DNA of 64,000 nucleotides from Raillietiella orientalis (lineage: Eukaryota), in NCBI GenBank assembly GCA_036172245.1, contig JAYWIR010000105.1:62001-126000 (forward strand), written 5' to 3'. The stretch's first letter is position 1, and every line of letters starts with the position of its first letter. Positions 28,771-51,700 of this stretch are shown piece after piece. The notes beneath the pieces were generated by a model. It worked only from the letters and a program-made list of their open reading frames with translations, ran no database searches and was not told the DNA's origin. Made by a program: the position numbers and the translations under genes.

Positions 28771-31700
28771 GTTGAACGTGAAAGAGGTGAACCTGAAAGG
28801 TCTTTCAGAGCTCAGTGGGGGTCAGCGGTTGGAGATGATTGGGACCTTTTTAAGGCCTCGGTCCGCGAGTTCTGCGAGGAGTTCCCCTTGTACCGCCTGC
28901 GTCCCGGATTTGGGGATGGGGTGCGTAACGAACGGGCGTATTTGTATGCCCGCCGTTACGCAAGGACCCCCAACATTCGTCGCCTTGCGGAGTATCGAGC
29001 CGGGACCGAACGTCAAGCCTGGCAATCCGGGTCGGCCAGCTTGCTTAACGACCAGGGCCGGGAGCACTCTCCGACTAGAATACGGCACCTCGTGCGGCGT
29101 TATTATTCTTCCCCTTACGCCAGAGCGCCACCGGACCAAGATGCCTCTCGGCGCTTGCTTCCGGACGGTGTCCCGGCAATAAGGGAGGAGGAGAAGGAAA
29201 GCCTCGACGAGCCTTTTATTATCGGCGAAATTCTCAACAGTATCAAAAAGCTCAAGAGGCGGAAAGCACGAAAGGAGGACGGCCTGCAAGCGGAGTTTTT
29301 TCAATACTTCGGGGCAGAGTTTTCACCCCTGGTGCTTTAGTTGACAAGGCTTATCCGAGACCAAGGCGATGTTCCCGCCTCGTTTCGGTCAGCCAGAGTG
29401 AGGCTCCTTCCCAAGAGAGGAGTCCTCAGAGAACTCAGCAACTGGCGTCCGATTACCATTGTGAATACAGACGCCAAGCTGATCGCCGGACTGTGGGCGT
29501 CGCGTCTAGGACAAGTGGCAGAATCCGTAATTAGCCCGGAACAGACTTACGCTGTTCCCGGGCGAAGTATGGATGCCAACCTGTTCTTCGCGAGCACATG
29601 ATTTTGCTGGCAGAGTAGTAAACATGATCGAGAGCGTGTGAGTGGCTACCCCGCTTTGGAAGCGCCGGCCGGGCAGGGAAGGGACACCGGGCCGGAGAAG
29701 GGGGCCCCTGCGATCGCGGTCGATCTGCATAAAGCGTTTGACTCCGTGGACCAGGAGCTTTTGTTGGAGCTCCTGGGTCGCATGGGCTTCCCACCCTCCC
29801 TACTAACCTACCTGCGCTCCTGCTAGCGCAACGCTATAATCAACGTCTCTTTCAGTACTCAACAAGTGTACGGCGTGCCGGTGCGACGGGGTATCAGGCA
29901 GGGCGATAGCCTTAGTCCCCTGCTCTTCAGCGCCTACTTCGAGTTGGTGCTGAGAGCATACAGGGTGACTTTGGCTGCCTTGACGAGCTCGTGCCCCGGC
30001 ACGCCCGCCGTAGCGGCTTACGCCGATGATCTTCTTCTTCTTTTGCCAATGTCCGCCCCGGCAGCCGCAGTCGAAGATTTCTTCGACCTGCTGAGTCGTG
30101 GGACGGGACTACGGGTAAATAAGGCAAAGTCATCTGTGGAAGCGGTTGGTGCGACGTGGGTCGGACGGCCTGACTGGATCGGTTTGGGGATCCCCACGGC
30201 GAGGTGCTTGAAGTACCTTGGTGTGCCGTTGGGGGACTATTCCCCTTCGGAAGCGTGGGCGGGACGTCTTCAGAAAGAAGAGATGGCGATCCGCCCGTTT
30301 TTGGAAGACAGGTTTCTCCTTCCGGAACGGGCCGCGGTGTGAAACGCGTTCGCGGCTCCCATCCTCCGCCTTCTGCTTTTTGTTTTCCCCGTCCCGCCGC
30401 ACTCGAAGAAACGGACGAAGGACCTCCTAAGGATCGCAATTTGGGGGAGAGGGAGGCCCCGAGTCCCGTAGATGGACTTGTGTGCGCCGCGTCGGGATGG
30501 CGGTCTAGGCCTCTTGACGCTGTAGCGAGTGAAGACTTGGCTGCGATGGCGTATCCTGGCCATCGCAGCGAAGTTATGGAGCACCTTTTGGTGCATTCCG
30601 GCCCGCCTCCAAGCCAGCCGTTTGTCCCGCTGCGATGAACTCGCGTCTTTTCTTCTGCGCTCAGGCCAGAAGATAAGAAGATGCGGCCTACTGCTCAAGC
30701 GCATGGTAAAATTGGTCAAGGAGAACTTCTGGATGGCATGCAGCCCCGCCAACTCTTTCGCATGTCTGGAGGAATCTGTTAAAACGTGGGCGAGGTTAAA
30801 TGCCCAAGGAGAATAAAACTTCAACTGCCTGCGATTCTACAACCGTGCCCGCTGCAGCCTCCGGACCTTCTTGCAATGTTCCGCCCGGTGCACGTGGGCC
30901 GAGACCAGGCCCCTAGCTACGGCGATGCCCTTCCTGAAGAAGGCGCTCTCCAGCAGCCGCACGCCTAGGTGTCAAGTCTACTGCCGAATCGCAGGCAGAG
31001 AGAAGAAGTTAAGCGGCTGGACCACGGTGCAACTGCCCGATGCCACTACCCGAAGTGTCCTCCCGCGTGGTTTAAAGAGATGAAGCGAGCTGCTCAGCAT
31101 CCCGATGGATGACCTGATGTGGCCCCCGGAATTTATTGGATCGAGGATCCTCCCCATGAAGTAACAGGAGTCGGCGCTTCTGCTGTTGCATTGGGGTCTA
31201 CCCAGCAACGCACGCCGCCACCACTGGACCAGGGGTCGAGTAGATCCTGCCTGCATCAGGTGTGGGGAGCGGGAAACCCTCCCCCACCTCCTTGTTGATT
31301 GCGCAGCCCTATGACCCCTGTGGGAGGGTCTTGGTAACTCCCTACGGCTGCAGGAGGACAGCCAGCCCAGAGACGTTTTTCGGCTTCTTTTCGTGCGGGA
31401 TGCACTGCGACCAGCCGCCGCCCTGGCAGCACTCTGCTGCATCCGAGGAATCGTGACAAGCTTGAGCGATTACAGAAGACCGAGCCACGAGAGGGGTGCC
31501 GTCGAACTAGCAGTCCGCTACCTGCAGCTTGCAACCAGATGGCCCCACCTGGGAATCATTCGAACGGACCTCGAGGGCATCCAGGAAAGGATGGACCCTC
31601 CTCCCAGTAAACCGTGATCCCTTTCCCCCCCTCCAAATTCTTTTTGTTTTTCTGTTTTATTTATCTTTTTGTTTTTCCCCACCCCCTTCCGCTGCCGAGC

Positions 31701-31823
31701 AGAATCGCGCCGGTCTGCGTACCGCCGACCCGGCAGGTCCTGTTGAGTTGTCCGTAGTGGGGCCTAGTACCACTAATTGTAAAGAGAATTTACATTAAAC
31801 ACCCCGGCGTGACCGGGTGGCAA
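28771..31823 (+). mobile_element. LINE L-h: short ORF1 piece joined to the 3' three-quarters of ORF2, decayed
   Basis: LSELSGGQRLE (ORF1), then DWDLFKASVREF, WRPI, QGD, YADD; ends ccgggtg-gcaa. Confidence 0.9.
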
Positions 31824-32041
31824 CGTATAGAGAGGAGTAAAATTTTTTCACTATCCCGCGTCTCTGAGCGGGAACCGAGTGCTCCCGGCTTTGGTCGTCC
31901 AGCAAGCTGGCCGACACGGATTGCCAGGCTTGCCTCTCGGCTCCCGCTCGGTATTCCGCTAGCCTGCGCATGTCGGGGGTTCTCGCGTAACGTGGGGTCT
32001 AAAGATAGCACATTTCGTTACGCGGCCCCTCCCTAAATCCC
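31824..32041 (-). mobile_element. LINE L-i: ~220 bp ORF2 remnant between two antisense insertions
   Basis: GFREG..RRLAEYRAGAERQAWQSVSASLLDDQ..FYSSLY on the - strand. Confidence 0.8.
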
Positions 32042-34082
32042 TCTCCTCCAGAGCGGACGTGTTTTTCCTGAGCTCCCGAGTGAGTCGACAGGAAGCGGTT
32101 TTTTCTTTGTGTGTGTTCGTGTGGAACATCGTTGGTGTCCGATGGCAGCGATGCCTGAGGACACCACGATGGAGGTAGGCGTGGGGGAGGCTTGCCCACC
32201 CCCACAGCCTACGGAATCAGTGGCGTCCGCCCCGGAATCGCCCTCGCCGCCCAAGGCGAGGAGCTGGAGCGCCATGGTGGCCGCGCCGAGCGCGGAAACC
32301 ATGGCAGAGATGGCGGCCTAACGGGCAGCTGGGTACAAGCCCAGCTTGGTGTACCAGGTAGGCAATCTCCTTGACGGACGTACTGCTCGCGCTTTCTCGA
32401 GGGCGCTGCAGAACGCCAACGTATTAGAAAAGGATCTTGACGGTCTATCCGTGCTCAGCGGAGGTCAGCGCGTCGAGGTTGTCTGCAAGGACATCACCTT
32501 GGCGCAAAGCTTGATTACCACCCCACTGAACGTGGACGGACGCAAGATCCTTCCAGTGACGATGGACCGCTCCGTAGTGGTCCATCTGACAGGGATCACC
32601 AGCCGCATGACGCGGTCTGCGGTAGGTGATCAGTTAAGAAAATATGGCGATGTTCACGCGCTATGGCGAAAAGCCACAATCTTCGACGGCTACGATAGCC
32701 TGTTCGGAGGGCAGGCCGCCGCGCGCGTGATGGTGAAGGAGAGTGGGCTTCCCCACAAACTAGAGGTCAATGACGAAGTCGTAGACCTCTGGTACGTGGG
32801 GAAACCCCGCTTTTGTGGCTACTGCAATGCAGTAGGACACTTGCGCAAGCGGTGCCCGAACATTGCGTGCCACTTATGCGGGGAGAAGGGCCACGTGCGC
32901 CGCGTATGCCCTAAACGCCCCACTCCGGTACCGCCTCCTGCAAAGAAAGCACAGGCAAAACGCGGAAAAATGATCGAAAGACCAAAAAGAGATACTGGCC
33001 GGCAGCAGCCGCTAGCCCCTGTTCCTCCCACACAGGCGTCGGAAGAAAAACCTTACGAAGACGCGGGACTCCAAGACGGCTGGCAGCTGGTCAAGGCCAG
33101 GAAGGAGAAAAAGGTGCCCCCCGCGGAACCCGCGAAAGCGGTCAAAAAGACAGCCGGCAAGGCGAAAAAACCTGGGCCGCGCTGCAAGACCATGCGGGAA
33201 TGTACGGTGGCACTGGAGCGCATAGCCGTTCCCGAGACTGCCACCCGGGGCGACGAGCCTTCCCACGCCGTTTCCGCCGCGCCCGAGGTTCGCGACGACG
33301 AAGCCTCTGTTTGCACAGAGGGTGAGTCGCGCGAAGCGCGCCGAAAGCGAGGACGCCGCGTTCGCGCAGGCGGCGGAGGAGCTCGCGGCCACGCTGGCCG
33401 AGCGTGAGAACCCCTCACGCAAGGCCGTGCGAAGGCCGGCTCCGCCGAAGAAGGCCCCCGCAGGTGAGTGCGACCTGGGGGCCGGAAGTGCATCCTCCTC
33501 GTAGGAGGCACCCCCCCGGAAGACGGAACGCAAGTCCCAAAAGCCGAGGAGGCGCCTCCCCTCCACGAGCGAGGAGGAGAAGCAGGAAGCCGACGGCAGC
33601 GTGGGAATCCAGGATTGGGAATCCCACGCGCGGAAGTCGCCGAGCAGGCCACCCCCATGGAGGAGGGTGAGCAGGGAGGCGAAGTCCTCCTTGCCGGCGC
33701 GGACCCTGTACCGCCCACCCGTATGGAGGAGGGCCAACAGGTAGGCGCGACCCCACCGGAGGGTGACCCGCCCGACGCCCCGTCACCGATGGAGCAGGGG
33801 GACCAGGTGCTCGAGGCACCTGTCCCTCCTGCCCCAACTAGCGTCCCGCCCCAACAGGTGGCGGACGCCGCAGAGCGGATTTCCCAGGAATAACACCTGG
33901 GCTCGCCTGTCGCCGTCGAATCCGCGTAGCCAGTTGGAACGTCAACGGGCTGCGCGACGACGGCAACAGACGAGATACGGCCGACACCCTGCGTGAGTTC
34001 AACCTGGCCCTGCTGCAGGAGATCCACGTGATCACCGCGGCAGACGCCCAGGAGATCGAGACGATCGCGGGGGGTCGGTTGT
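32042..34082 (+). mobile_element. LINE L-j: 5' end, ORF1 and ORF2 start, cut by L-k
   Basis: AGAGCGGACGTG 5' motif; CGYCNAVGHLRKRC and CHLCGEKGHVRRVC; WNVNG after 33893. Confidence 0.92.
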
Positions 34083-34290
34083 TTGTCACCCGGGTGCGCC
34101 GGGGCGTTTATTATAAACTATCCGGGAACAGGGTTCCCGGACAAAGGGTAGAACAAGAGACGAAAGGGGTGGGATCCCCGACACGCAGGTCGGTATGCCG
34201 AAAGTCCGGAACGGGAAGGAAGGGACCACAAACACACTACTATATAAAAAAATAAAAGAAAAATATGGAGGGCAGGGGACAGGGGTCTTT
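34083..34290 (-). mobile_element. LINE L-k: 3' UTR-only fragment
   Basis: - strand AATAAA-cgCCCCGGcgcacCCGGGTG-acaa and a CCGAC-ctgcgt-GTCGG hairpin. Confidence 0.8.
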
Positions 34291-35283
34291 GGTGAGTCCG
34301 TTCCTTCCTTCACCCCCCTTGCCCCAGTGCTGCCCTCCCTCAGGAAAGTTCCGGACAGCCACCAACAGGCATCGTGGGAAGTGTCCTGCCCCATCGGAGG
34401 CAGGAAAAAATCACTGAAGGCGTGGACGCCTAGGGAACTAGCGGACGCTAGTACCCCGAGTGTCCCGCCGAACGGACTTTTACGCTGGAGCGCGCTGCTC
34501 GGTATACCTCCGGAGGAGGTGAAGTGGCCCCCAGCGTCATGGGACAACGGCACCCTTCCCCTGCAGTGGCAGGAGACGGCGTTACTTCTGCTCCACTGGG
34601 GACTTTTAAGCAGAGCACGCCTGTCTCGCTGGACATGGGGGAATGTGGATGCTAGTTGTGCAGAGTGCGGGGAAAGGGAGACCTTCCCCCACTTGATTCT
34701 GGAGTGTGTTGCCCTCCACGAAATGTGGGACAGACTCTCGTCGATCCTCAACATTCCGGAGGGTGACCCAAACAATTTATTCTAACGCCTCCTGACGCGA
34801 GACGGCTTGCCAGCCTCCGGGAGCGTAGCAGTACTCTGCTGCATACGCGGTATCTTGGAGAAGTGGACCGCGTCTAGGAGAGGAAGGACCAGCCGGAATG
34901 GCATCCACTGGGCAGCGATCTCCTTGGAGAAAGCGTGCCGTTGGCGCCGACTTCAAAAACATTTGCCGGCACTTGTTCGCATCCGAAACCGGATGCAAAG
35001 GCCTGCTCACGGCGCACCGTGATCCCCTCCCTCCCTCCCCCTCCCCAAGAAACATTGCCTTCCAGACGTTTCTCTTTTTGTTTTTGTTTTCTTTTCTTTT
35101 TCCCGTCCCGGTGCCAGTGAAGGACCTTATCGGCCCCCGGGTCGGTAAGCACGAGTGCTACTGAACTTCTGAACTTAACTTCTGACGACGTAAAAAGAAA
35201 AAGTTTAACTACATAGACTTTGTTACAAAATTTTGTAATATCAAAATTTTAGTAATAAAAGCCCCGGCTTACCCGGGTGAAAA
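34291..35283 (+). mobile_element. LINE L-l: 5'-truncated 3' fragment (L-c-like lineage)
   Basis: WEVSCPIGGRKKSLKAWT, CAECGERETFPHLILEC; ends ccgggtg-aaaa. Confidence 0.9.
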
Positions 35284-36899
35284 ACCTGAGCTGGGCTGGA
35301 GCGTTCTTGGTTCTGATGGTCCAGCAAGCAGGCCGAGACTGACTGCCAGGCCTGCCTCTCCGCCTCAGCTTTGAATTCCGCCAAGCGACGGACGTCGGGA
35401 CGCCTGGAATACCGGCGGGCCTGAAGGTAGGGCGGCACGTTCCTGACCCCATCGCCGAAGCCCGGCGGAAGACGTTCCAGGGGAAACTGGTCGCAAAACT
35501 CGCGGACTGAGCACTTCATTTCGTGCCAGTCCGCGAGCGTCTCAAGATGGAATCCTCGCAGGAAGGCGCGTAGATGTTCCGCCGCTCCTGCGAGGCGCAA
35601 CCAGCCCCCTGGCAGGCGCCACGTTTTCAAGGGAGGGCCCTTATTCCGCGAATGCAATCCGAGCACGAGCCGTGGATGGTCGGACAGCTCTGCCGGGAGC
35701 GTTCCTCGAGTTCCCACCCGCGTGCACAGGTGGTTCTCGAGGAACATGTGATCGATGTTCCGATCTCTCCCGGCATCACCGGCCAACAAGTTACGCGCAT
35801 TCATTGCTGCGCACAACTCGTTCACCAGTTGTGCTCGACTGCTGGGCGCACCTGCAAGCAGGCGGAGATTGAAGTCGCCCGCGATGAGGTGCGCCCGCCC
35901 TACGCTTGCTTCAGCCAACCAGTCTCGCCTCAGGGATTCGAAGAACGCAGTGCGTTCCTCGGCCCTGTGGCTGCTCACCGGAGCGTACAGGTTCGTCACC
36001 ACGAAATCGATCGAGTCAGAACACTTGAACGCAAGCTGCCCAACTCGACCGTCCTCGTCAAACCTGACGCTGCGCAGTGCGTTGTCGACGGATGGCTTCA
36101 GCATAAAGGCCACTCCGCAGGAGCGGTCGTTTCCGTTTCTCCACAGTAGCCGCCCTCCCGCGATTCTTTCCATTTCCTGGACATCTCCCGGTCGGAGAAC
36201 GTGCGTCCCTTGCAGGAGCACCAGGTCGAAGTCTCGCAGTATGGCGGCTACATCTCGCCTCTTTCCGTCGTCGCGCAACCCGTTGACATTCCAACAGGTG
36301 ATGCGCAAGCGGCGGCAGAAGGCGAGCCCACGCACTGATGCGTTTATTGTGGGGTGGAGGCGGCCTCCTCCCTTGCGGGAGGCGGCTTGTTGGCGGCCGT
36401 GACGACGGTCGGCTGCTCACACGGGAGCACGTCGTCCACAGCGACTTCCATGAGGCTGGCTTCCGAGACACGGATCGGAGAGGGGTCGCGTGGCGCGACG
36501 CACATTGCCTCCTCCTCCGTGCCCAAGGACATGGCATCCTCCACCTGCGGAGGGGCGACCAGTCTCGGGCAACCGGTCTTCTTGCCAGCTTTCCTCTTCG
36601 GCACGGCTGCGGAAGTAGAACAACAGGCTTCGGTTTCGGACTCGGAATTTTCCGGGCCCTTCACCGTTGCCGGTCGTCTCAAGGCCTTCTTTTCGGCCTT
36701 CGCAGGCCGCCTGAACATGGCTGCCAGCTCTTCCGCGGCCTGCGCGAAGGTCGCGTCCGTTATGCGCGCCGCCTCCTCACTTTCCGCACCGACGTTTGCG
36801 CAGGCGCGACAGGGGCGGCTTCATCGATCGGCGCGCAGACGTCCTTCGCTGGCAATGCCGGAACGGCATTGTCGTCAGCTAATGGTGACGTCACTGCGG
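35284..36899 (-). mobile_element. LINE L-m: ORF1 3' part plus ORF2 APE region
   Basis: ORF 35241-36335 carries the APE motifs; ORF1 tail 36344-36718. Confidence 0.92.
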
Positions 36900-39839
36900 T
36901 TGACACCCGGATGTGCCGGGGCATTTATTTCCTTGAAATAAAAGTACATGAAGTGTCGCGTGGCGAACTCCAAGGTTCACCACTGCAAAACAGCTCGCTG
37001 GTTACCGGCTCCATGCCGGAGAGGTCCTTCCGGTTCGCGGGGATGGGAAATAAAGAAAAACAAAAGGTAACAAAAAGTTTAAATGTGGGGGGGAACAAAT
37101 GTTGTAGGGGTGGGAAGGCCGGGAAGGGATCACGGTGCGCGTGGGAAGGTCCTCTAGTTCCTATTCAGGATCCGCACAAGCTGAGTCCTTTCAGCGCCCA
37201 AGTGGCGCCACTTGCAGACACTGCGCGCGAAAAGGCGAGTCCAGTGTAAGGCGTTGCCGGTTGGCTGACGCCATCTTCTGGTGGCGTTCCAAGCCGCCAC
37301 TATTCCTCTGATGCAGCAGAGGAGTGCTACACTAGCGGGCGGGGACAAGGCGTCACTACAGAAGAGGCGCCTGAAAACGTCCTTAGGGCCGCATCCGTGC
37401 AAGTCCAGGATCCCCGCGAGACGATCCCACAAAGGGCGGAGGGTGCTACACTCAAGGAGAACGTGGGGGAATGTTTCTTTTTCCCCACACCAGTCACAAT
37501 TGGGATCCACAGCCCCACGGGTGGTGTGGTGCAGGCGAGCTTTAAATGGTAATCCCCAGAGTACCACAAGCAACGCCACATCCTGCAATTTCAGGGGGAG
37601 GGATGCACTGTTCCAAAACGCTGGGGGCCACTTCATCTCCTCCGGAGATAGTCCGAGTAGCTCGCCCCAGCGTCGAATTCCGTTGGGCGGGACACTCGGC
37701 GTCGCAGCGTCAGCTAGCTGCCGAGATGTCCACGCCGTTATCGATTGTGTCCTGCCGCCTATAGTGCAGGACACGGTCCATTTCCCCTGCTCGCTACTGT
37801 CCCTGGCATTCACAAGGAAGGGCAGCACTGGGGCGAGTGGGTTTATCAAGGCCCACAGAAGCTTGTCGTGGGACTGCACGATCTCCTGCAGCGTCCAACG
37901 GGCGTGCCTTTTCATACAAGTGTTCCTTGTGCCCGCCGGAACGTGGATCTTTTCCCAGGTGGAGACTGACTCGTGCAACCAGGCGGAGTAGTTCCCTGGG
38001 AGGCAGGAGATCCAGGCGTTCTCCCGAACCGTAACAAAGATGCGCCGCAGCATAGAGCCACAGTATGGTCTTCTGCAGACGCGCGCAGACAGAAACGACA
38101 AAAGTCCGCCGATTCCGCAGGCTCGTTGGGCCAGGAGGCGTGCTGCAACGCACCAAGGCGTGTCCCACAATTCCGCCGCAAGGGCGAGAGTCCTGAATCG
38201 AAGTTGTAGTTCCATGCGCTCCAGCGTAAGTACGCCAAGTCCACCGTCCTTACGTGGAGCGCACAAGTCTTTGAGCCTCACACGGGACCTCCCTTTGCCC
38301 CAAAGGACTGTCCTCAGGAGGCCCGCTGCTCGTTTCCGAATAAAATAAGGGGCGGGGCAAACAAAAAGTAGGGGGAGAAGGAGGGGAGCCGCAAACGCGT
38401 TCCACACAGCGGCCCGTTCCTGCAAGTAGAACTTGCCTTCTTGGAACGGACCGATCGCCAACGCTGCCTTTTGGAGTCGGTCGGACCAGGCTTCTGCTGC
38501 GCAGAAGTCCCCCAACGGTACGCCGAGGTACTTGAAGCACCTGCCCGTGGGGATCCCCAAGCGGATCCAGTCCGACCGTCCAGCCCACGCCGAACCGACG
38601 AACACCATGGACGACTTCGACCTGTTCACCTCCAGGCCCGTCCCGCGGCGCAGCAACTCGAAGAAGTTCTCGAGTGCACTCGCCGGGGTGGACCCGGGAA
38701 GCAGCAGCAGAAGATCGTCTGCATAGGCCGACACGGCAGGCGTGCCGGGACACGAGCTCGGCAGGGTTGCCAGAGTTACCCTGTATGCCCTCAGCACCAA
38801 CTCGAAGTAGATGCTGAAGAGCAAGGGGCTCAGGCTGTCACCCTGCCGGATGCCGCGGCGCACTAACACAGCGTACACGTGCCTGCCGCTGAAACCAATA
38901 TTGATTGACGCGTTGCGCCAGCAGGAGCGCAGGTAACATTGAAGCACGGCAGGGAAACCCATGCGTTCCAGGAGCTCCAGAAGGAGAACCTGGTCGACGC
39001 AGTCGAATGCTTTGTACAAATCGACCGCGACGGCAAAGGCTCCCGCCGAGTCCATCCCACCCTCTGCCCGATCTTCTTGGTCAGAAGGGGGCGCGAGGCT
39101 CCCTTGACCGTCCTGTGCAACGCGTTGTCGCAACTGCCACCATGAGCTGGCGAGGAGCAGGTTGGCCTCCATGGTTCGTCCGGGAACAGCATAGGTCTGC
39201 TCGGGACTCACCACGGAAGCGGCCACCCGCCCCAAACGCTCAGCCCACAACTTGGCATACACCTTTGCGTCCGCATTCACTACTGTGATGGGACGCCAGT
39301 TGCCAATGTTGCGTAAGTCTCCTGACTTCGGCAGGAGACGTACTTTTGCTGACCGGAACGAGGCGGGAACTTCGCCGTGTTCGCGGATCAGCGTACTTAA
39401 CCTGAGCACCAGGGGGGCCAGCTCTGGCGCGAAGTGTTTGTAAAACTCCGCGGGCAGGCCGTCCTCCCCTGGTGCCTTCCTTCTCTTGAGCCTGTTGATG
39501 GCGGAGATGATCTCCGCCATCGTGAACGGTTCCGCCAATCTGGAACGGTCCTCCTCCTTGAGCGCGGGAGCGCCATCCGGCAGCAGGCGCTGCGCGAAAT
39601 GGCGCTCAGCTGTTAGTGGCGCGTACAAGGAGGAATAAAACTCCCGCACGATGCGGCTTACCTGGGCGGGGCTGGAGCGTTCTTGGCCCTGATGATCCAG
39701 CAGGCAGGCCGAGCCTGACTGCCAGGCCTGCCTCTCCGCCTCAGCCTTGAATTCAGCCAGGCGACGGTCGTCGGGACGCCGGGAATAACGGCGCGCCTGG
39801 AGGTACGCCCGCTCGTTCCTGACACCCTCACCGAAGCCC

Positions 39840-41388
39840 TTTCCTGGAAGGCAAGTTTCACTTGCCGGAACGGGCCGCGGTTTGGAACGCCTTCGCGGCC
39901 CCCGTACTCCGCCCCTTGCTTTTTGTTTGCCCCGCCCCCGTGGAATCGAAAAAGCGGACGAAGGACCTCCTCCGCATAGCTCTTTGGGGCAAGGGGAGGC
40001 CCCGAGTCCCTTTGAAGGACTTGTGCGCTCCGCGTCGGGACGGCGGTCTCAGCATCCTGACGCTGGAGCGCGTGGAAATCCAGCTGCGATGGCGGACCCT
40101 CGCCATCGCAGCAAAGATGTGGAGCACCGCTTGGTGCATTCCGGCCCGTCTCCTGGCCAGGCGTGTGTCCCGCTGCGAAGGACACGCATCGTTTCTCTTG
40201 TGCCCTGGCCGGAAGATTCGAAGATGCGGTCTACTGCTCGGCCGCATGGCAACCCTGGCAAAGGAGAACGACTGGATGGTTTGTGTCCCTGCCAACTCCT
40301 CCGCTTGGCTGAAAGAGACTGCTGGCACCTGGGCCAAGCTGAACCAGAGGTGCGAAGACCAGATGAACTGCCTGCGAGTCGGCTTTTACGCCCGCCGAAC
40401 TCTCCGTGAAATACTTGAATTTCCACCGAGTTGCACGTGGGCGGAAGGCACACCCCTTGTTACGGCGATGCCCTTCCTCCAAAGGGCGCTTCACGGAAGC
40501 CGCAAGCCAAGGTGGCAAGTCTGCTGCCGTATCGCAGGCAGAGAGAAGATGATCAGCGGCTGGACCATGGGAGAGTTGACAGATGCAACGACCCCTAGTC
40601 TCCAGGCGCGTGGATTAAGAAGATGAAACGAGCTGCTCGGCATTCGATTGGATGACCTGAAGTGGCCCCCGGTTCTTCTTGGATCCAGGATTCATCTTCT
40701 GAAGTGGCAAGAATCGGTGCTTCTGTGGCTGCATTGTTGTCTACCCTGCAACGCGCGCCGCTTCCACCGGACGCGGGGAAGAGTAAATCCTGCGTGTGCC
40801 AGGTGTGGGGAGCGGGAGTCGCTCCCCACCTTATAGTTGAATGCCCTGCCGTCCAGTTTCTTTAGTATCGTTTGAAAACGGCCCTCCGGATACCGGATGG
40901 TGGCAATGTTGGATGTGTCTTCAGTCTTGTCTTCGTGCGGGACGCCCTCAGTCCAGCCGCAGCCCTGGCAGCACTTTGCAGCATTCGTGGTATCCTTGCC
41001 TCCTTGAGTGATGCCAAAGATGAAGACTACATCGTGAGGGACGTCAACGAGTATGCTTCTCGCTTCCTGCAGAGAGCTACCCGATGTCCCCACCTAGGAA
41101 AACTGAAAATGGAACTAGAAGGCATCCTGCAAAGGATGGGCGCTCCCAGCAGTTTTCTGTGATCCCTTCCCGGCCCTCCAAACTTTTTTTTTTGTGGTTT
41201 TTTTTTCTATTTCATCTTATTTTTGTTTTTTCTTCCATCCCCCTCTACTGCCGAGAAGAGCCACACCGGGCTGCGTCCCGGTGTACCGGCAGTTTCGGCA
41301 TTCCGTGGCCGTCAGTGGGGCTTTGTACCACGTTCTGTATTGACCGTTGAAATGTTTTTAATAAACGTCCCGGCGTATCTGGGTGGCA
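39840..41388 (+). mobile_element. LINE L-o: 5'-truncated copy closely related to L-p
   Basis: Nearly the same sequence as ~45505-47050; ends ctgggtg-gca. Confidence 0.93.
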
Positions 41389-41400
41389 TCGCCGAAAGCC

Positions 41401-44400
41401 GGTGTGGGTGGACGTGTTTTTTGGTCGCTCCGCCAGCGCTTGTCTGGGAAGCAACCGGAGTTTTTAGTGTAGTCAGGTGTAAAGTGTGGGTCGTCGGTGT
41501 CCGATTGCAGCCGTGCCAGACGACACCGCAATGGATGTAGTTGTGGGGAAGGCAAGTCCTTCCACAGGACCTACGGGTATGGGTGGAATAGTCCCTGGAA
41601 CGTCTTCGCAGCCGGCGAAGACTTGGAGTGAAATGGTCGCCGCCCTTAGTGCGGAGGCCATGGCCGAGGAAGCCGCCTATCGGGCCTCTGAATACAAGTA
41701 ATCGCTTGTATACAAGGTAGGCCCTTTGTTTGAAGGAAACACGGCGCGCTCTTTCAGCAGAGCGCCACAAAATGCTAATGTCCGTAAGGAAGTTCTGGAC
41801 GGTCTGTGCGTGCTCAGCGGGGCGCAGCGGGTTGAGCTGGTGTGCAAGAGCATCAGCCTAGCCGATCGCCTTATATATACCCCGCTAATCATGGACGGCC
41901 GTAAGATCTTCCCGGTGTCAATGGACCACTCGGTAGTGGTCCACTTGACAGGAATATCCAAGCGCATGACGGGCACTGCCGTAAAAGCAGAATAAAGTAA
42001 GTACGGGGACGTACACGCGCTGTGGCCGAAGCCCATAATCTTTGAGAATTACGGACGCCACTTCGGGGGCCTCGCCGCGGCACGCGTAACCCCAAAAAAC
42101 GAAGCGAAGCTACCCCACAAACTTGAGGTCGCGGGAGAACCAGTAGACCTCTGGTATGCTGGCAAGCCACGGTATTGCGGCTACTGCGATGCGGTCGGAC
42201 ACATCCGTAAGAGGTGCCCGAACATCGTATGCTACTTGTGCGGGGAGAAGGGACACGTCCGTCGCGTGTGCCCTAAACGCCCCACCTTGATTTTCTCGGC
42301 CGCCAAAAAGGCGCAAGCGAAACGCGCGGGGAAAGAAAAATTAGAAAACCGTGAAACTGGCCGAGAAAAGCTGCCAATAACCCAAGCTCCAAGCGCGGCA
42401 TCGGAGAAAAATCTTCCCGAAACCGCAGAGGGTGAACAGGGCTGGCAGCTAGTCAAAGCCAAAAAAGAAAAACAGGACAAGCATGTCCCGAAGAAAGGAG
42501 AGAAGGCGGCGGCCGGAACAAAAGCTCAATCCGTGTCGCGCGTAAAAACTCTCCGAGAATGCACGGTTACGCTGGAGCGCATTGACGTTCCCGCCGACAC
42601 CACCGGAGGCGATACGGCTTCGATCGATTTTCCCGCCGCGACGAATGCGCGCGAAAACCCACCCCCTGCTTGCGAAGAGGGTCAGCCGGACGACCAAATT
42701 GCCGAAACCAAGGACGCAGCCTTCGAGAAGGCCGCCGAGGAGCTTGCGGCAACGCTTGCCGAACGCGAGAACCCTTCGCGAAAGGGGTTGCGTAGGCCGG
42801 CAGCGGCTAAAGTGGCCCCCGCAGGTGAGTCGGACCGGGAGGCCGGAAGTGCATCCTCCTCTGCGGACGCACCACCAAGGAAAGCGGGGCGAAAATCCCA
42901 GAAACCCCGAAGGTGCATTCCGCCTCCGCGCGAGGGGGATCCAATGGAGGAGGAACCAGTGGATGACAGCGTGGGAGCCCAAGTCGGGCATTACCCACGT
43001 GCGGAAGCCGACGAGAAGGCGACTCCAATGGAGGAGGGTAACCAGGGGTCAGCAATGCCCTCTGAAACCGCCGAACCTGAACCACCCGCACCAATGGATG
43101 TGGGCCAACAGGTACCAACAACACCCCCTTCGCACGGGCAGCCGGAGACGTCGGCACGTGAGAAGGATGGGGAGTTGGTGGGCAAGACGCCAACCCCGTC
43201 CAGCGACCCGCCCCAAAAGGTGGCGGGAGCACCACCGCCAGGTTCCCAGGAATAACACCTGGACTCGCCTGTCGCCGTCGGATCCGCGCGGCCAGTTGGA
43301 ATGTTAATGGGCTGCGCGACGACGGAAAAAGACGAGATACAGCCGCCACCTTGCGAGATTTCGACCTGGTGCTTTTGCAGGAGATCCACGTGATCACCGC
43401 AAAAGACGCTCAGGAGATCGAAACGATCGCGGGAGGGCGGTTGTACTGGCGATGCGGCGCCCGCAACACTTGTGGGGTCGCGTTCTTCCTAAAGCCAGCC
43501 ATTAACGCAGCCGTGAAGGACGTGCGCTTTGGGGACGACGGACGGATCGGCCAACTGATTCTCAGATGGTCCGATTCGATCGACCTCATCGTCACCAATG
43601 TGTACGCTCCTAGCGGTAAACAGGGATACCAGCAGCGCAACGCGTTACTGCAAACCTTAAAGCGCGAATGGCTGGTGGACGCGGACGTGCGAAAGGCGCA
43701 TCTGATAGCAGGGGATTTCAACGTCCGTCTGCTCTCAGATCAGCCCGGAGCACAGGGGAACGCGATCAACGAGTTGTGCGGCGCCATGCGCGCGCTTAAC
43801 TTGTTGACAGAAATAAGCGGGATGGTCAACAGCGTGGACCACGTCTTCCTCGACGAAGACCTGTGCACACGGGTCGGAAAACGAGGGACGCTTGGATCGA
43901 CGCTGTCGGACCATTCCCGGTTAGTATTCGAGATGCGCCCGCGCGACAAGGGACCGCCATCCAGGGATTGGCGTATGCCAGGGGACTGGACGCGCCTGTC
44001 AGGAGCGAAAGAACATCTTCGCGAATTCCTGCGAGGCGTCACCCTCCAGAATCTCGCGGATTCGGACCTATTTCAGGACTCGGTCCGGGAGTTCTGCGAA
44101 CAGTTCCCAGTGCAACGTCTGCCCCGGGGATTCGACGAAGGGGCTCGCGACGAACGCGCGTATTTGCACGCGCGTCGTCACGAGAGGAACCCCAATGTCC
44201 GTCGCCTGGCCGAATACCGCGCCGGAGCCGAGCGACAAGCCTGGCAATCCGGGTCAGCCAGCATGCTGGATGACCTGGGCCGGGAACGTTGGTCCCCGTT
44301 TGCGGTACGGAATCTCGTGCGGTGTTTTTATTCCTCCCTTTACGCCAAAACTCCACCCGAACAAGACGCCTCGCGGCGATTGCTCATGAGTGGTTCCGTG

Positions 44401-47050
44401 GCGATAGGGGAGGAGGAGAGAGAAAGCCTCGATGAGCCTTTCACGACCGGTGAAATTCTCGCCGGTATCAAAAGGCTCAAGAGGCGTAAGGCGCCAGGGG
44501 AGGACGGCTTGCCCGCGGAGTTCTTTCAGAGTTTCGCGGAAGAGCTGGTTCCCCTGGTGCTCGAGTTGACAAGGCGAATCCGAGACGAAGGCGATGTTCC
44601 CGCCTCGTTTCGGTCAGCCAGGGTGAGGCTCCTCCCGAAGGGACGAGACCTCAGGAAACTTTGCAACTGGCGTCCGATCACGATTGTGAACACGGACGCC
44701 AAGTTGATTGCCGGGCTGTGGGCGTCGCGATTGGGGCAGGTGTCCAATTCCATAATTAGCCCGGAGCAGACATACGCTGTTCCCGGGCGAAGTATGGAGG
44801 ACAAGCTCTTCTTCGCGAGCACATGGATGCACGCGCAGCGGAGTAATAAAGAAGGGAAAGGGAAAATTTGCAACCCTACTTTGGGGCCGCCAGTGGGATA
44901 GGGTAGGGACCCTCATGCGGGAAAGGGGGCCTTAGCGATCGCAGTCGACCTCCATAAGGCATTCGACTGTGTTCGGCGAAGGGTCGCATGGGCTTCCCAC
45001 CCTCCTTGATTTCTTACCTGCGCTCTTGCTGGCGGAACGCGATACTCTCAATTTCTTTCAGTGGACAAAAGGTGTATGGCGTGCCGGTGCGGCGGGGCAT
45101 AAGGCAGGGCGACAGCCTCAGCCCCTTGCTTTTTAGCACCTACGCTGAGTTGGTGCTGAGAGCGTACAGGGTGACTTTGGCCCCCTTGCCGAGCTCGTGC
45201 CCCGGCACGCCAGCCGTAGCGGCGTATGCCGACGACCTTCTGCTCCTCTTACCTATGTCCACCCCGGCGAATGCGGTCGGAGACTTCTTCGATCTGCTCA
45301 GCCGCGGGACCGGACTGCAGGTTAACAGGGCGAAGTCGTCGGTTGTGCCAATAGGTGCGCCGTGGGCAGGGCAGCAGGACTGGGTCCATCTGGGGATCCC
45401 CACGGCGAGGTGCTTCAAGTACCTTGGTGTGCCGTTGCAAGACTTCTCCCCTGCGGAAGCGTGGTCCAGCTGCCTCCAAAAAGTCGAGACGGCGATCGGC
45501 CCGTTCCTGGAAGGCAAGTTTCACTTGCCGGAACGGGCCGCGGTTTGGAACGCCTTCGCGGCCCCCATACTCCGCCCCTTGCTTTTTGTTTGCCCCGCCC
45601 CCGTGGAATCTAAAAAGCGGACGAAGGACCTCCTCCGCATAGCTCTTTGGGGCAAGCGGAGGCCCCGATTCCCTTTGATGGACTTGTGCGCTAAGCGTCG
45701 GGACGGCGGTCTCAGCATCCTGACGCTGGAGCGCGTAGAAATCCAGCTGCGATGGCGGACCCTCGCCATCGCAGCGAACATGTGGAGCACCGCTTGGTGC
45801 ATTCCGGCCCGTCTCCTGGCCAGGCGTGTGTCCCGCTGCGAAGGACACGCATCGTTTCTTCTGTGCCCTGGCCGGAAGATTCGAAGATGCGGTCTACTGC
45901 TCGGCCGCATGGCAACCCTGGTAAAGGAGAACGACTGGATGGTTTGTGGCCCTGCCAACTCCTCCGCTTGGCTAGAAGAGACTGCTGGCACCTGGGCCGA
46001 GCTGAACCAGAGGTGCGAAGACCAGATGAACTGCCTGCGAGTCGGCTTTTACGCCCGCCGAACTCTCCGTGAAATACTTGAATTTCCACCGAGTTGCACG
46101 TGGGCGGAAGGCACACCCCTTGTTACGGCGATGCCCTTCCTCCAAAGGGCGCTTCAGGAAAGCCGGAAGCCAAGGTGGCAAGTCTGCTGCCGTATCGCAG
46201 GCAGAGAGAAGACGATGAGCGGCTGGACCATGGGAGAGTTGACAGATGCAACGACCCCTAGTATCCAGCCGCGTGGATTAAGAAGATGGGGCGAGCTGCT
46301 CGTTATTCGATTGGATGACCTGAAGTGGCCCCCGATTCTACTTGGATCCAGGATTCTTCCCCTGAAGTGGCAAGAATCGGCGCTTCTGTGGCTACATTGG
46401 GGTCTACCCTGCAACGCGCGCCGCTTCCACTGGACGCGGGGAAGAGTAAATCCTGCGTGTGCTCGGTGTGGGGAGCGGGAGTCGCTCCCCCACCTCTTAG
46501 TTAAATGCCCTGCCGTCCGGATTCTTTGGGAACGTCTTCAAACGGCACTTGGAATACCGGATGCTGTCAACGGTGGATGTATTTTCAGTCTTGTCTTCGT
46601 GCGGGACGCTCTCAGTCCAGCTGCAGTCCTGGCAGCTCTTTGCTGCATTCGTGGTATAGTGGCGGCCTGGAGTGATGCCGAAGATGAAGACTGCATCGTG
46701 AGGGATGTCATCGAGTATGCTTCTCGCTTCCTGCAGAGAGCTACCCGATGGACCCATCTAGGAAGGATGAAAAAGGAACTAGAAGGCATCCTGCAAAGGA
46801 TGGGCCCTCCCAGCAGTTTTCTGTGATCCCTTCCCGGCCCTCCAAACTTTTTTTTGTGGTTTGTTTTTCTCTTTTATTTTATTTTTGTGTTCTCCCTTAT
46901 CCCCCTCTACTGCTGAGGAGAGCCACACCGAGTTGCGTCCCGGTGTCCCGGCAGTTCCGGTATTGCGTGGCCGTCAGTGGGGCCTTGTACCACGTTCTGT
47001 ATTGACCGTTGAAATGTTTTTAATAAACGTCCCGGCGTATCCGGGTGGCA
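41401..47050 (+). mobile_element. LINE L-p: full-length (~5.65 kb) with stops in ORF1 and a stop plus small deletion in ORF2
   Basis: GGACGTG 5' motif; ORF1 to 43255; ORF2 pieces 43351-44901 and 44988-46826; ends ccgggtg-gca. Confidence 0.95.
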
Positions 47051-48397
47051 TCACCGAAGCCCGGCGGAAGACGTTCCAGGGGAACCTGGTCGCAAAACTC
47101 ACGGACTGAGCACTTCATTTCATCCCAGTCCGCGAGCGTCTGAAGCTGGATTCCTCGCAGGAAACAGCGTAGATCTTCCGCCGCTCCTGCGAGGCGCAAC
47201 CAATCCCCTGGCAGGCGCCATGTTTTCAGGGGAGGGCCCTTATTGCGCGGATGTAACTCGAGCACGAGCCGTGGATGGTCGGACAGCTCTGCCGGGAGCG
47301 TTCCTCGAGTTCCCACCCGCGTGCACACGTGGTTGTCGAGGAACATGTGGTCGATGTTCCGATCTCTCCCGGCATCGCCGGCCAACAAGTTGCGCGCGTG
47401 CATGGCTGCGCACAACTCGTTGACCAGCTGTGCTCGTCCGCTGGGCGCACCTGCCAGCAGGCGGAGATTGAAATCGCCCGCAATGAGATGCGCCCTTCGC
47501 ACGCCTGCTTCGGCCAACCAGTCTCGCCGCAAGGTTTCGAAGAACGCAGTGCGTTCCTCGGCCCTGTGGCTGCTCACCGGAGCGTACAGGTTCGTGACTA
47601 CGAGTTCGATCGAGTCGGACCACTTGAACACAAGCTGCCCAACTCGACCATCCCCGTCGAACCGTGCACTGCGCAGTGAGTTGTCGACGGTTGGCTTTAG
47701 CAGAAAGGCCACTCCGTAGGAGTTGTCCGTTCCGTTCCTCCACAGTAGCCGCTCTCCCGCGATTCTTTCGATTTCCTGGACATCTCTTGGTCGGAGAACG
47801 TGCGTCTCTTGCAGGAGCACCAGGTCGAAGTCTCGCAGTATGGCGGCTACATCTCGCCTCTTTTTGTCGTCGCGCAACCCGTTGACATTCCAACAGGTGA
47901 TGCTCAAGCGGCGGCAGGAGGCGAGCCCTCGCATTGGTGTATTTATGGTGGGGTGGAGGCGGCCTCCTCCATTTCGGGAGGCGGCTCGTTGGCGGCCGTG
48001 ACGACGGTCGGCTGCTCACCCGGGAGCACGTCGTCAGCAGCGACTTCCATTGCGCTGGCTTCCGAGGCGCGGACGGGAGAAGGCTCGCGTGACGCGACGC
48101 ACATTGCCTCCTCCTCCGTGCCCGAGGACATGGACTCCTCCACTTGGGAGGAGGCGACACTTCTCGGGCATCCGGCCTTCTTGCCAGCTTTCCTCTTCGG
48201 CACGGCTGCGGAAGTAGAGCAACCGGCTTCAGCGTCGGACCCGGAAGATTCCGGGCCCTTCGCCGTCGCCGGTCGTCTCAAGGCCTTCTTTTCGGATTTG
48301 GCAGGCCGCCTGAAAATGGCTGCCAGCTCTTCCGCGGCCTGCTCGAAGGTCGCGTCTTCGATTCGCGCCACCTCCTCGCTTTCCGCACCGACACTCG

Positions 48398-48788
48398 TTT
48401 TCACCCGGATATGCCGGGGCATTTATTCAAAAGAATAAAATCACAATGGATTGTCGCATGGTGAACCCAAAGGTCCACCACTACAAAACAGCTTGGTATT
48501 TACGGGCGCTATGCCGTAGAGGTCCATCCGATCCGCGGGGGTTGGGAAAGAACAAAACAAAAAACAAACAAATAGTTGAAGTATGGGAGGGAGCAAATGT
48601 TTCGGGAATGGGAGGGCAGGGAGGGGATCACCGTGCGGGCGAATAGGTCCTCTAGATCCTATTTAGGATCCGTACAAGCTGAGTCCTCTCTGCGCCCAAG
48701 TGGCGCCACTTGCAGACGTCTCGGACGAATAGGCGGGTGAACCGTAAGGCGTTGCCAGTTGGCTGACGTCTTCTTCTGGTGGCGTTCC
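48398..48788 (-). mobile_element. LINE L-q: 3' fragment of the L-n subfamily abutting the satellite
   Basis: NATRRRRQPTGNAL..RILNRI* matches the L-n C-terminus; terminus ccgggtg-aaaa at 48398. Confidence 0.9.
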
Positions 48789-48799
48789 TAGAGTTCTGA

Positions 48800-51700
48800 G
48801 GGCAATGGTGAAATCTTCTGTTTTCTAACTGATTACAAATCCCCAAAAGCTGCAACGTTGGACCGCATAATAAATGAGAGCGAAGGAGAATATTCCCCTT
48901 GTAAGTCCGCCACTGGTTACCATGAAAACAAGACAGAGTAAAAGTGCCACGCCCTAATGAAATTTCGAACTCTTGTTAATCATCCTCTGAAAGCAGAAAT
49001 TGGAAGGGCTTCGGCTCTCCATGAAAGGGATTTGCCACTCACCGCAAAACTTCGTGAAGAGGCGCAAAAGTGCAATGGTGAAATCTTTTGTTTTCTAATT
49101 TCTTACAGATCCGCAAAACCTGCAAAGTTGGACCACATAATGAATGAGAGCGAAGGAGAATATTCCCTTTGTAAGTCCGACACTGGTTACCATGAAAACA
49201 AGACAGAGTCCAAAGTGCCACGCCCTAATGAAATTTCGAACTCTTCTTAATCATCCTCTGAAAGCAGAAATTGGAAGGGCTTTCGGCTCTCCATGAAAGG
49301 TATTTCCACTCACTGCAAAAGGATGCTTCGTGAAGAGGCCCAACAAAGTGCAATGGTGAAATCTTTTGTTTTCTAATTTCTTTCAAATCCCCAAAAGCTG
49401 CAAAGTTAAACCGCATAATTAATGAGAGCGAAGGAGAATATTAACCTTTTGAGTCCGGTACTGGTTACCATGAAAACAAGACAGAGTCCAAAGTGCCACG
49501 CCCTAATGAAATTTCGAACTCTTCTTAATCATCCTCTGAAAGCGGAGATTGGAAGGGCTTGCGGCTCTCCATGAATGGGATTTGCCACTCACTGCAAAAG
49601 GATGCTTCGTGAAGAGGTGCAAAAGTGCAATGGTGAAATCTTTTGTTTTCTAATTTCTTACATATCCGCAAAAGCTGCAAAGTTGGAGCACGTAATCAGT
49701 GAGAGCGAAGGTGAATATTCCCCTTGTAAGTCCGACACTGGTTACCATGAAAACAAGACAGAGTCCAAAGTGCCAGGCCCTAATGAAATTTCGAACTCTT
49801 CTTAATCATCCTCTGAAAGCAGAAATTGGAAGGGCTTTCGGCTCTCCATGAAAGTTATTTGCCACTCACTGCAAAAGGATGCTTCGTGAAGAGGTGCAAA
49901 AGTGCAATGGTGAAATCTTTTGTTTTCTAATTTCTTACATATCCGCAAAAGCTGCAAAGTTGGACCACATAATGAATGAGAGCGAAGGAGAATATTCCCC
50001 TTGTAAGTCCGACACTGGTTACCATGAAAACAAGACAGAGTCCAAAGTGCCACGCCCTAATGAAATTTCGAACTTTTCTTAATCATCCTCTGAAAGCCGA
50101 AATTGTTAGGGCTTTCGGCTCTCCATAAAAGGGATTTGCCACTCACTGCAAAAGGATGCTTCGTGCTGAGGCGCAAAAGGGCAATGGTGAAATCTTCTGT
50201 TTTCTAATTGTTTACAAATCCCGAAAAGCTGCAAAGTTGGACCGCATAATGAATGAGAGCGAAGGAGAATATTCCCTTTGTAAGTCCGACACTGGTTACC
50301 ATGAAAACAAGACAGAGTGCAAAGTGCCACGCCCAAATGAAATTTCGAACTCTTGTTAATCATCCTCTGAAAGCAGAAATTGGAAGGGCTTTCGGCTCTC
50401 CATGAAAGGGATTCACTCACTGCAAAAGGATGCTTCGTGAAGATTGCGCAAAAGCGCAATGGTGAAATCTTTTGTTTTCTAATTTCTTACATATCCGCAA
50501 AAGCTGCAAAGTTGGATCACATAATGAATGAGAGCGAAGGAGAATATTCCCCTTGTAAGTCCGACACTGGTTACCATGAAAACAAGACAGAGTCCAAAGT
50601 GCCACGCCCTAATGAAATTTCGAACTCTTCTTAATCATCCTCTGAAAGCAGAAATTCGAAGGGCTTTCGGCTCTCCATGAAAGGATTTGCCACTCACTGC
50701 AAAAGGATGCTTCGTGAAGAGGCCAAAAGTGCAATGGTGAAATCTTTTGTTTTCTAATTTCTTTAAATCCCAAAAGCTGCAAAGTTAAACCGCATAATTA
50801 ATGAGAGCGAAGGAGAATATTAACCTTTTGAGTCCGGTACTGGTTATGAAAACAAGACAGAGTCCAAAGTGCCACGCCCTAATGAAATTTCGAACTCTTC
50901 TTAATCATCCTCTGAAAGCGGAGATTGGAAGGGCTTGCGGCTCTCCATGAATGGGATTTGCCACTCACTGCAAAAGGATGCTTCGTGAAGAGGTGCAAAA
51001 GTGCAATGGTGAAATCTTTTGTTTTCTAATTTCTTACATATCCGCAAAAGCTGCAAAGTTGGAGCACGTAATCAGTGAGAGCGAAGGTGAATATTCCCCT
51101 TGTAAGTCCGGCACTGGTTACCATGAAAACAAGACAGAGTCCAAAGTGCCAGGCCCAAATGAAATTTCGAACTCTTCTTAATCATCCTCTGAAAGCAGAA
51201 ATTGGAAGAGCTTTCGGCTCTCCATGAAAGTTATTCGCCACTCACTGCAAAAGGATGCTTCGTGAAGAGGTGCAAAAGTGCAATGGTGAAATCTTTTGTT
51301 TTCTAATTTCTTACATATCCGCAAAAGCTGCAAAGTTGGAGCACGTAATCAACGAGAGTGAAGGTGAATATTCCCCTTGTAAGTCCGCCACTGGTTACCA
51401 TGAAAACAAGACAGAGTAAAAGTGCCACGCCCTAATGAAATTTCGAACTCTTCTTAATCATCCTCTGAAAGCAGAAATTCGAAGGGCTTTCGGCTCTCCA
51501 TGAAAAGGATTTGCCACTCACTGCAAAAGGATGCTTCGTGAAGAGGCGCAAAAGGGCAATGGTGAAATCTTTTGTTTTCTAATTTCTTTCAAATCCCCAA
51601 AAGCTGCAAAGTTAAACCGCATAATTAATGAGAGCGAAGGAGAATATTAACCTTTTGAGTCCGGTACTGGTTACCATGAAAACAAGACAGAGTCCAAAGT

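Follow-up and report, generated by a model that had tools for sequence, protein, structure and literature searches.

Probable antisense insertion of L1-type LINEs at a conserved Gly-Phe-Gly motif of sibling LINEs in a nested repeat region of Raillietiella orientalis

Background

Target-specific long interspersed nuclear elements (LINEs) are known for ribosomal DNA (rDNA), small nuclear RNA genes, microsatellites, telomeres and a few foreign transposons. A 64,000-nt stretch of the Raillietiella orientalis contig JAYWIR010000105.1 (hereafter the window, the one stretch to which all statements below refer) raises the question of whether a LINE lineage can also be specific for a fixed position in the coding sequence of its own relatives. 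The window contains GC-rich L1-like LINE copies, nested in each other, which occupy positions 1-15100 and about 27700-48798 and have a GC content of 55-63%, versus 42-46% in the neighbouring DNA; an AT-richer stretch separates the two blocks. In the second block, two plus-strand elements, L-o and L-p, stand in tandem inside the second open reading frame (ORF2) of a minus-strand element, H, and a third element, L-j, begins beside a short ORF2 fragment of another copy, Hf. A preceding interpretation made from the DNA letters only (the sequence-only reading) had described these as three insertions at one place of ORF2, a Gly-Phe-Gly (GFG) motif, with a target-site duplication (TSD), and had proposed that LINE subfamilies partition distinct target sites within ORF2.

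Results and discussion

The GFG word and its duplication in the host H

We consider it probable, on the anatomy of the copies described below, that the L-p lineage (L-p, L-o and probably L-j) consists of L1-type LINEs that carry an apurinic/apyrimidinic endonuclease (APE) domain, are sequence-specific and land at the GFG word of sibling LINEs. The target reads 5'-GGGCTTCGGTGA-3' on the coding strand of the host and encodes a conserved Gly-Phe-Gly(-Glu) between the endonuclease and the reverse transcriptase (RT); the inserts are antisense to the host, the TSD is exact over 12 bp, and the empty host family carries the site once. There is good support for repeated insertion at the GFG word; the case of L-j and the partition of sites among lineages are supported but not secured.

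The 12-mer TCACCGAAGCCC (target T) has exact matches only at 39828-39839 and 47051-47062, i.e. at the two outer edges of the 7.2-kb plus-strand block formed by L-o and L-p (of the 10 matches found in the window at up to 2 mismatches, 2 are exact), while by our own arithmetic about 0.008 exact matches are expected in 64 kb on both strands. The reverse complement of the left copy, G|GGC TTC GGT GA, corresponds to the G-F-G codons of the host, and the minus-strand reading at the junction is GGC TTC GGT GAG (G F G E), within the conserved stretch VREFC..FP...LP.GFGEGVRNER.YL between the endonuclease and the RT. Outside the block there is one minus-strand L1-like LINE, H (APE part, 47020-48015; RT part, 39838 to 37157), which is open on both sides of the block with the GFG codons in frame on each side (47020-48015, 331 aa; 37154-40048, 894 aa of host). 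Its upstream part (47051..48398) comprises a remnant of the first open reading frame (ORF1) and the APE domain and has a 5'-truncated end that adjoins the 3' end of a further copy, H0, at 48399, and its downstream part (36901..39839) runs from the GFG codons through the RT and zf-RVT domains (894 open codons) and the 3' untranslated region (UTR) to the 3' end at 36901. In a tblastn search with the L-p ORF2, the alignment breaks at residue 322/323 at both the H and the Hf junction.

Two independent empty sites show the host sequence before insertion. H2 (35283..36900, minus strand), a sister copy of H with 87-90% identity that is cut by another element, L-k, 180 nt downstream of GFG, has no insert at the site: it carries the word TCGCCGAAGCCC at 35452-35463, reading ...ccccaTCGCCGAAGCCCggcggaagacgttcc, and has it once. 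In addition, one contig from a public sequencing run (X1) spans 39622-39839 with 5 differences and then continues with 17 letters, GGCGGAAGACGTTCCAG, identical to the sequence to the right of 47062. Thus, the 12-mer is a true TSD of host sequence. X1 was the sole run listed (0.20 of the sampled words); it supplied 91 contigs, 70 of which are only 90-95% alike; the contigs are short, come mostly from other copies of the family and speak neither for nor against the assembly of the junctions.

The ORF2 of L-p itself reads GGATTCGACGAA (G-F-D-E) at 44128-44139, where seven other copies have G-F-G/R-E/D. The letters beside the presumed nick differ from the target, which could reflect self-avoidance, in what is a single case.

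Two insertions at one site: L-o and L-p

L-p (41401..47050, plus strand) is full length (5650 bp), with an ORF1 that encodes a CCHC knuckle (41996-43255), an ORF2 in two frames (43162-44901, APE and the start of the RT; 44958-46826, RT and zf-RVT), which implies at least one frameshift, and a 3' end composed of AATAAA, a hairpin and TGGCA with no poly(A). L-o (39840..41388, plus strand) is a 5'-truncated copy of the same family that begins at residue 181 in the second frame of ORF2, reaches the 3' end and corresponds to L-p 45503-47050. The two are 93.3% identical (1452/1557 aligned bases, 7 gap columns) and share the tail ...CCGGGTGGCA (final letters ...AATAAACGTCCCGGCGTATC[C/T]GGGTGGCA; L-p-type tail word ...CCCGGCGTATCCGGGTGGCA), which is in each case directly followed by a copy of the target. 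The middle copy, T' (41389..41400), is degenerate (tcgccgaaagcc) and agrees with T in 9/12 letters and with the H2-type site in 10/12; we estimate the chance of at least 9/12 matches at a fixed place to be about 4e-4 (binomial, p = 0.25).

The order of the block is therefore T, truncated L-o, T', full-length L-p, T. By our reasoning, this order is not producible by duplicating any single segment of T-Lp-T, which would place the full copy or its 5' part first and never a 3' fragment starting at T, and it fits two target-primed insertions. Tandem copies of SINEU-3 that sandwich a TSD have been interpreted as sequential insertion in the passage cited here (Kojima 2015, PMC4494074).

If L-o and L-p went back to one insertion that was duplicated locally or by unequal crossing-over, or if the tandem were an artefact of assembly, a single event would be left at this site. 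Such an origin would account for two adjacent elements of the same orientation with 93% identity and for a ratio of nonsynonymous to synonymous substitutions (dN/dS) that is not far from neutral (0.67 over 328 codons), and the region is highly repetitive, with no X1 contig shown to bridge the junctions. Besides the block order, with which a simple local duplication does not agree, several features speak for separate events. The 5' junction of L-o bears a 4-nt microhomology (GCCC, common to the start of L-o and the end of the target word), as is typical of truncated LINE joints known from human L1. The divergence between the two copies is uneven, at 2.5-5% up to column 800 and 8-16% from there to column 1400, which is not the pattern of a duplicate that decays in place. 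Assembly errors collapse or multiply identical repeats and do not produce two copies 7% apart, and unequal crossing-over between two occupied sites would require two GFG insertions anyway. We therefore regard a single event as highly improbable and retain repeated insertion, as the sequence-only reading had it for the flanking 12-mers, the degenerate third copy between L-o and L-p, and the recurrent use of one site.

A minimal mechanism for such events can be proposed; its model of endonuclease specificity is drawn from the anatomy of the insertions alone. The endonuclease would nick the coding strand of the host after GGTGA (GGGCTTCGGTGA^GGG), reverse transcription would be primed at the nick from an RNA that ends in the hairpin and TGGCA and lacks poly(A), and the opposite strand would be cut 12 nt away (TCACCGAAGCCC^GG). 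Each insertion would rebuild the target on both of its sides, which would make a second hit possible at the same place. The flank expected after L-p-type tails would be TC[A/G]CCGAAGCC in an antisense LINE ORF2.

A third event at the GFG codons: L-j in Hf

L-j (32042..34083, plus strand) is the 5' part of an L-p-like element, with the 5' UTR, ORF1 and ORF2 up to about residue 95, where a minus-strand element cuts it at 34084. It begins immediately after ccctccctaaatccc (32027-32041), which belongs to Hf (31823..32041, minus strand), a 219-bp fragment of ORF2 that runs from the GFG codons to +216 nt, has one in-frame stop and lies between the 3' end of a further element, L-i, and the 5' end of L-j. 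The minus-strand reading at this junction, GGA TTT AGG GAG (G F R E), involves the same codons as the junction in H, and the two breaks differ in position by no more than 1 nt. L-j and L-p can be aligned at their 5' ends from GGACGTGTTTTT on. Among the copies that keep a 5' part, L-j is the closest to L-p in every 5' region compared, with an identity of 76% in ORF1 1-102, 73% in ORF1 229-317 and 84% in the APE N-terminus, versus 48%, 48% and 64% for the next-best copies. The nucleotide identity of Hf is highest to L-i (72%), followed by L-p (66%) and H (61%), which places Hf outside the H family.

We considered whether one old composite of host and insert had been copied to two places, and rejected it: Hf is closest to L-i and not to H, the H family had an intact site recently, as H2 shows, and both halves of the H ORF2 are still open. 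The divergences agree with this, since H and its empty sister H2 are about 10-13% apart and L-j and L-p about 30% at the nucleotide level.

Another explanation of the Hf/L-j joint is a 5' inversion (twin priming) within one element, in which a second primer annealed at the element's own GFG word and the 5' part of the RNA was copied in the reverse direction. Hf and L-j would then be parts of a single copy, and L-j would not represent an independent hit. The joint is head-to-head: L-j, complete at its 5' end, is joined there to the 5'-most base of Hf. Hf and L-j are of one broad lineage, Hf being most similar to L-i and L-p; L-j has neither a 3' part nor a second target copy; and, as we reason, cutting a GFG target would free a top-strand end complementary to the GFG word of the incoming RNA. 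All of this would be compatible with twin priming. It would, however, set the position of the break only roughly, whereas insertion predicts it exactly, and the Hf break is within 1 nt of the top-strand cut deduced from the TSD of the L-o/L-p block. Furthermore, the 5' end of L-p shows the same layout (a T-like 12-mer, about 10 nt, GGACGTGTTTTT) next to a tail and not next to an inverted segment; Hf bears a genuine tail junction of L-i, i.e. it acted as a host; and twin priming would itself require a GFG-type target nearby. We thus view twin priming as unlikely and favour the insertion of L-j at the GFG word of Hf.

L-i (28837..31822, plus strand) is the nearest relative of L-p and L-o in ORF2 (75% nt; 60-64% aa in the C-terminal part), with its 3' junction at +216 of Hf. 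Its tail GTGGCA (31815-31830) meets Hf where the uninterrupted H (39620-39640) reads aGTGGCg, i.e. there is a 5-nt microhomology between the end of the element and the +216 target. On the other side of L-j, positions 34084-34308 form a minus-strand fragment with about 200 bp of a 3' UTR, which cuts L-j at ORF2 residue 95 and whose other end is head-to-head with the truncated 5' end of L-k. A GFG-like word, GTCTTTGGTGAG, is present at 34285-34296 beside this joint; it was tried as a degenerate TSD or GFG site and dismissed, as its flanks align with no ORF2 GFG region.

Class of the elements

The elements of the window encode an ORF1 with a CCHC knuckle and an ORF2 in which Pfam identifies AP-endonuclease, RT and zf-RVT domains (L-p: Exo_endo_phos, 1.8e-13; RVT_1, 8.4e-11; H: Exo_endo_phos, 2.7e-17; RVT_1, 1.2e-20). 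The zf-RVT match is 3.9e-06 in H and weaker in L-p (0.0018, under the curated cut-off), and zf-CCHC is found in the ORF1 of L-p (2.9e-05) and L-j (2.3e-04). The closest solved protein in a PDB search is human L1 ORF2p (1.1e-33), and the host ORF2 falls among the LINE-1 ORF2 clusters of a protein atlas; a protein search returned 5 matches, of which the best is a JGI protein without a name (64% identity) and the named ones are from Nicotiana. The combination of APE and RT in ORF2, a C-terminal zinc domain, a nucleic-acid-binding motif in ORF1, TSD and 5' truncation identifies these elements as APE-type (L1-group) LINEs, which the Pfam and PDB searches resolve to L1-like only and to no finer clade. 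The poly(A) or A-rich tail typical of L1 is absent, 11/11 tails being devoid of an A run.

Sites of other lineages in ORF2

To place the GFG events among the other insertions of the window, every tail was mapped to host ORF2 coordinates, with offsets given in nt relative to GFG. Two further positions recur. At +180, the tails of E3 (8475) and L-k (35282) join their hosts, E4 and H2, behind one and the same nucleotide, both antisense (joints 8466-8475 with the flank 8476-8724 of E4, and 35273-35282 with the flank of H2 from 35283 onward; host sense ...CAACGT| and ...CAGGT|). E3 and L-k are mutually nearest in the C-terminal part, with 60% aa identity versus at most 53% to others. At -69/-72, before the D-W-D codons, the full-length E5 splits one minus-strand host into E6 and E4 (boundaries 8724/8725 and 14264/14265), with a duplication of at most 3 bp; the homology of L-i to other ORF2 copies also starts at -69 (28837), where its left neighbour is not a simple antisense insert. 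The remaining sites were seen once each: the tail of L-i at +216 in Hf, that of E1 at about APE residue 87 of E2, that of the 34084 element at residue 95 of L-j, and that of the 28106 element at about residue 122 of another copy. In total, 9/11 tails are antisense to their LINE host, and the other 2/11 (H0 to H, H to H2) are head-to-tail with differing truncation points. Three coincident pairs of junctions were seen, versus about 0.03 expected, on a rough calculation of ours, if about 12 junctions fell randomly within an element of 5.6 kb. With about a dozen junctions, these observations fit one site per narrow lineage, as far as so small a sample goes.

It could be argued that the GFG region is a generally fragile or accessible spot, owing to DNA structure or recombination, that any lineage may enter, and that the match between site and lineage is an accident of the small sample. 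Only three events are at GFG among about a dozen junctions, L-i is close to L-p and sits at another site, and four breakpoints (-69, 0, +180, +216) are within about 290 nt of ORF2. On the other hand, all three GFG events involve L-p and its nearest relatives, both +180 events involve the mutually nearest E3 and L-k, the junctions agree to the nucleotide, which is unexpected for a merely fragile region, and TSD length varies between lineages (12 bp in L-p and no more than 3 bp in E5). We hence give little credence to a general fragile spot and prefer lineage-specific insertion sites.

The hairpin tails

All 11 tails of the window (ends at 4428, 8475, 14264, 31822, 35282, 41388 and 47050 on the plus strand, and 28106, 34084, 36901 and 48399 on the minus strand) share one design: AATAAA, a short spacer, a hairpin CCNGG-loop-CCGGG with a 5-nt loop, and TGNNA, with the flank directly after it and no poly(A). 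In L-p the hairpin (47031..47050, plus strand) is CCCGG-CGTAT-CCGGG followed by TGGCA. The stem is invariant (apart from one G-U in L-o and two decayed copies), and the loop and the last bases vary by lineage. Zepp, an L1-type LINE compared below, has a poly(A) tail, and the window elements, with their hairpin and TGGCA, differ from it in this.

By eye, the tail of L-k resembled the +180 host in 13/16 positions. The idea that the 3' hairpin mimics the target, so that RNA-DNA pairing selects the site, was rejected: when the last 20 nt of the 11 tails were compared with 7 host stretches, the best matches were at a background level of 12-15/20 everywhere, and the insertion sites were not distinguished from it.

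Observations that weigh against the proposed specificity

Several observations weigh against the proposed specificity and explain our reservations. Both tail (3') junctions at GFG belong to a single host copy, to which the second host adds a head junction only, and the tandem rests on the assembly, as no reported X1 contig is shown to bridge the H/L-o or the L-o/L-p joint. The near-cognate GFG sites of E1, E4 and H2 (1-2 mismatches, n=3) are empty. Of its 12 letters, T' has 3 changed relative to T, and the 58 nt before it in the two tails show a single difference; T' is thus more diverged than neutral decay predicts, at about p = 0.04 or less by our binomial estimate. Since T' is nearer to the H2-type word, its letters hint that it may have been copied from RNA that read through from a donor at some other GFG site, or changed during 5'-end joining. 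In database searches, the tail pattern was found at 120 loci in metagenome contigs, none similar by blastn/tblastn, as expected of chance matches in GC-rich DNA; collections of genome contigs and viral contigs contained neither relatives of the L-p ORF2 nor any match (0) to the 29-nt tail.

The remaining points concern L-j and L-i, and they limit claims of the sequence-only reading. Its statements that the ORF1 of L-j is most like that of L-p and that L-j starts right after ccctccctaaatccc hold. Its placement of L-j at the same position in a different host is borne out by the shared codon and by Hf being outside the H family, and falls short in that the target word of Hf agrees with T in 8/12 letters and that L-j has a head (5') junction only. 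The 3' part of L-j is nowhere in the window and the second target copy is missing, because the minus-strand element cuts L-j at 34084. As to the partition of ORF2 sites among subfamilies, the recurrent breakpoints at +180 and -69 agree with it, and the sample of about a dozen junctions and the position of L-i restrict it: the closest ORF2 relative of L-p and L-o is inserted at +216 and not at GFG, which implies that the lineages sharing a target are narrow, and L-i and L-j share no sequence, so this pair does not decide whether they are of one family.

Surroundings of the LINE copies

H is part of a head-to-tail minus-strand run of H0 (48399-48798), H (36901-48398, interrupted) and H2 (35283-36900), in which the 3' end of H0 adjoins the truncated end of H and the 3' end of H adjoins H2. 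About 100 bp separate the ORF1 truncation points of H and H2, which suggests separate events, and the layout resembles Zepp-type arrays of 3' parts. A 277-bp satellite (48799-64000; copies about 90-92% identical, 42% GC) begins at the truncated end of H0 and extends to the last position of the window. Between the two LINE blocks, the AT-richer stretch contains a 3.76-kb inverted repeat with 97.5% identity between its arms (17053-20811 and 21485-25248); a Pfam search of 7 open frames of this stretch gave no match, and an Rfam search of the window found no RNA family.

Relation to known target-specific and self-nesting LINEs

A close parallel by description is the Zepp group of green algae. For ZeppL-1 of Chlamydomonas and for Zepp, it is said that insertion 'targets existing copies', giving arrays in which 5'-truncated 3' parts abound (Craig et al. 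2021, PMC8226300), and Zepp of Coccomyxa ('Chlorella' C-169) has 61% GC versus 53% in the genome (Blanc et al. 2012, PMC3446292). Going by the cited passages, these are GC-rich L1-type LINEs found solely in nested clusters, and the window elements likewise are GC-richer than their surroundings and deeply nested, with the head-to-tail H0-H-H2 run and an adjoining satellite. In contrast, what those passages describe is general nesting, with no fixed positions in coding motifs, antisense orientation or sites particular to a lineage.

LINEs of the Tx1 clade land at fixed places in other transposable elements: Tx1L in the piggyBac element Tx1D, the crocodilian Tx1-Mar in Mariner-N4_AMi, and Tx1-8_Crp and Tx1-4_AMi in long terminal repeat retrotransposons (PMC4494074). 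To the extent covered by the cited text, they resemble the window elements in being APE-type, in having a fixed site within another transposable element, in that related families use different places or orientations of the same target, and in tandems that sandwich a TSD; they differ in that the targets reported there are unrelated transposons and not the coding sequence of sibling LINEs, with no reciprocal network. The rDNA-specific LINEs R1, R2 and their relatives, with which the sequence-only reading had drawn the comparison, offer another likeness: several lineages, related or not, each occupy an exact position of their own within one conserved multicopy target (28S). According to the portions cited, the R1Bm endonuclease cuts both strands at fixed offsets (PMC1919474), and R2 uses a different, restriction-like endonuclease (PMC4640811). 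Here the difference is that the target in the window is the conserved ORF2 motif of the elements themselves and not a host gene, and that insertion is antisense.

Our literature search found no description of sibling LINE lineages that insert antisense at fixed codons of each other's ORF2; this result is provisional, the original Zepp papers and supplements being outside its coverage. Provisionally, the finding would add to the sequence-specific APE LINEs a fixed antisense LINE-in-LINE coding site as the new feature, self-nesting (Zepp) and the targeting of transposable elements (Tx1) being known.

Conclusions

Beyond the GFG site, we speculate, with about even confidence, that the window harbours a guild of sibling L1-type LINEs, in which each endonuclease is aimed antisense at a different indispensable block of ORF2 codons of the others: GFG for L-p, L-o and L-j, +180 for E3 and L-k, -69 for E5 and +216 for L-i. 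With targets that are both conserved and rebuilt by the TSD, such elements would have safe landing pads that renew themselves, and the gene-free islands they form, here beside the 277-bp satellite and possibly centromeric, could grow on their own.

If this is true, siblings that use each other's coding motifs as exact, self-renewing landing sites would represent a new ecological strategy of retrotransposons. It would also provide a concrete mechanism for the self-building of Zepp-like LINE-only islands, which are putative centromeres in some green algae, and a natural series of related AP endonucleases with different 10-12-bp specificities, which would be useful for learning how specificity is encoded.

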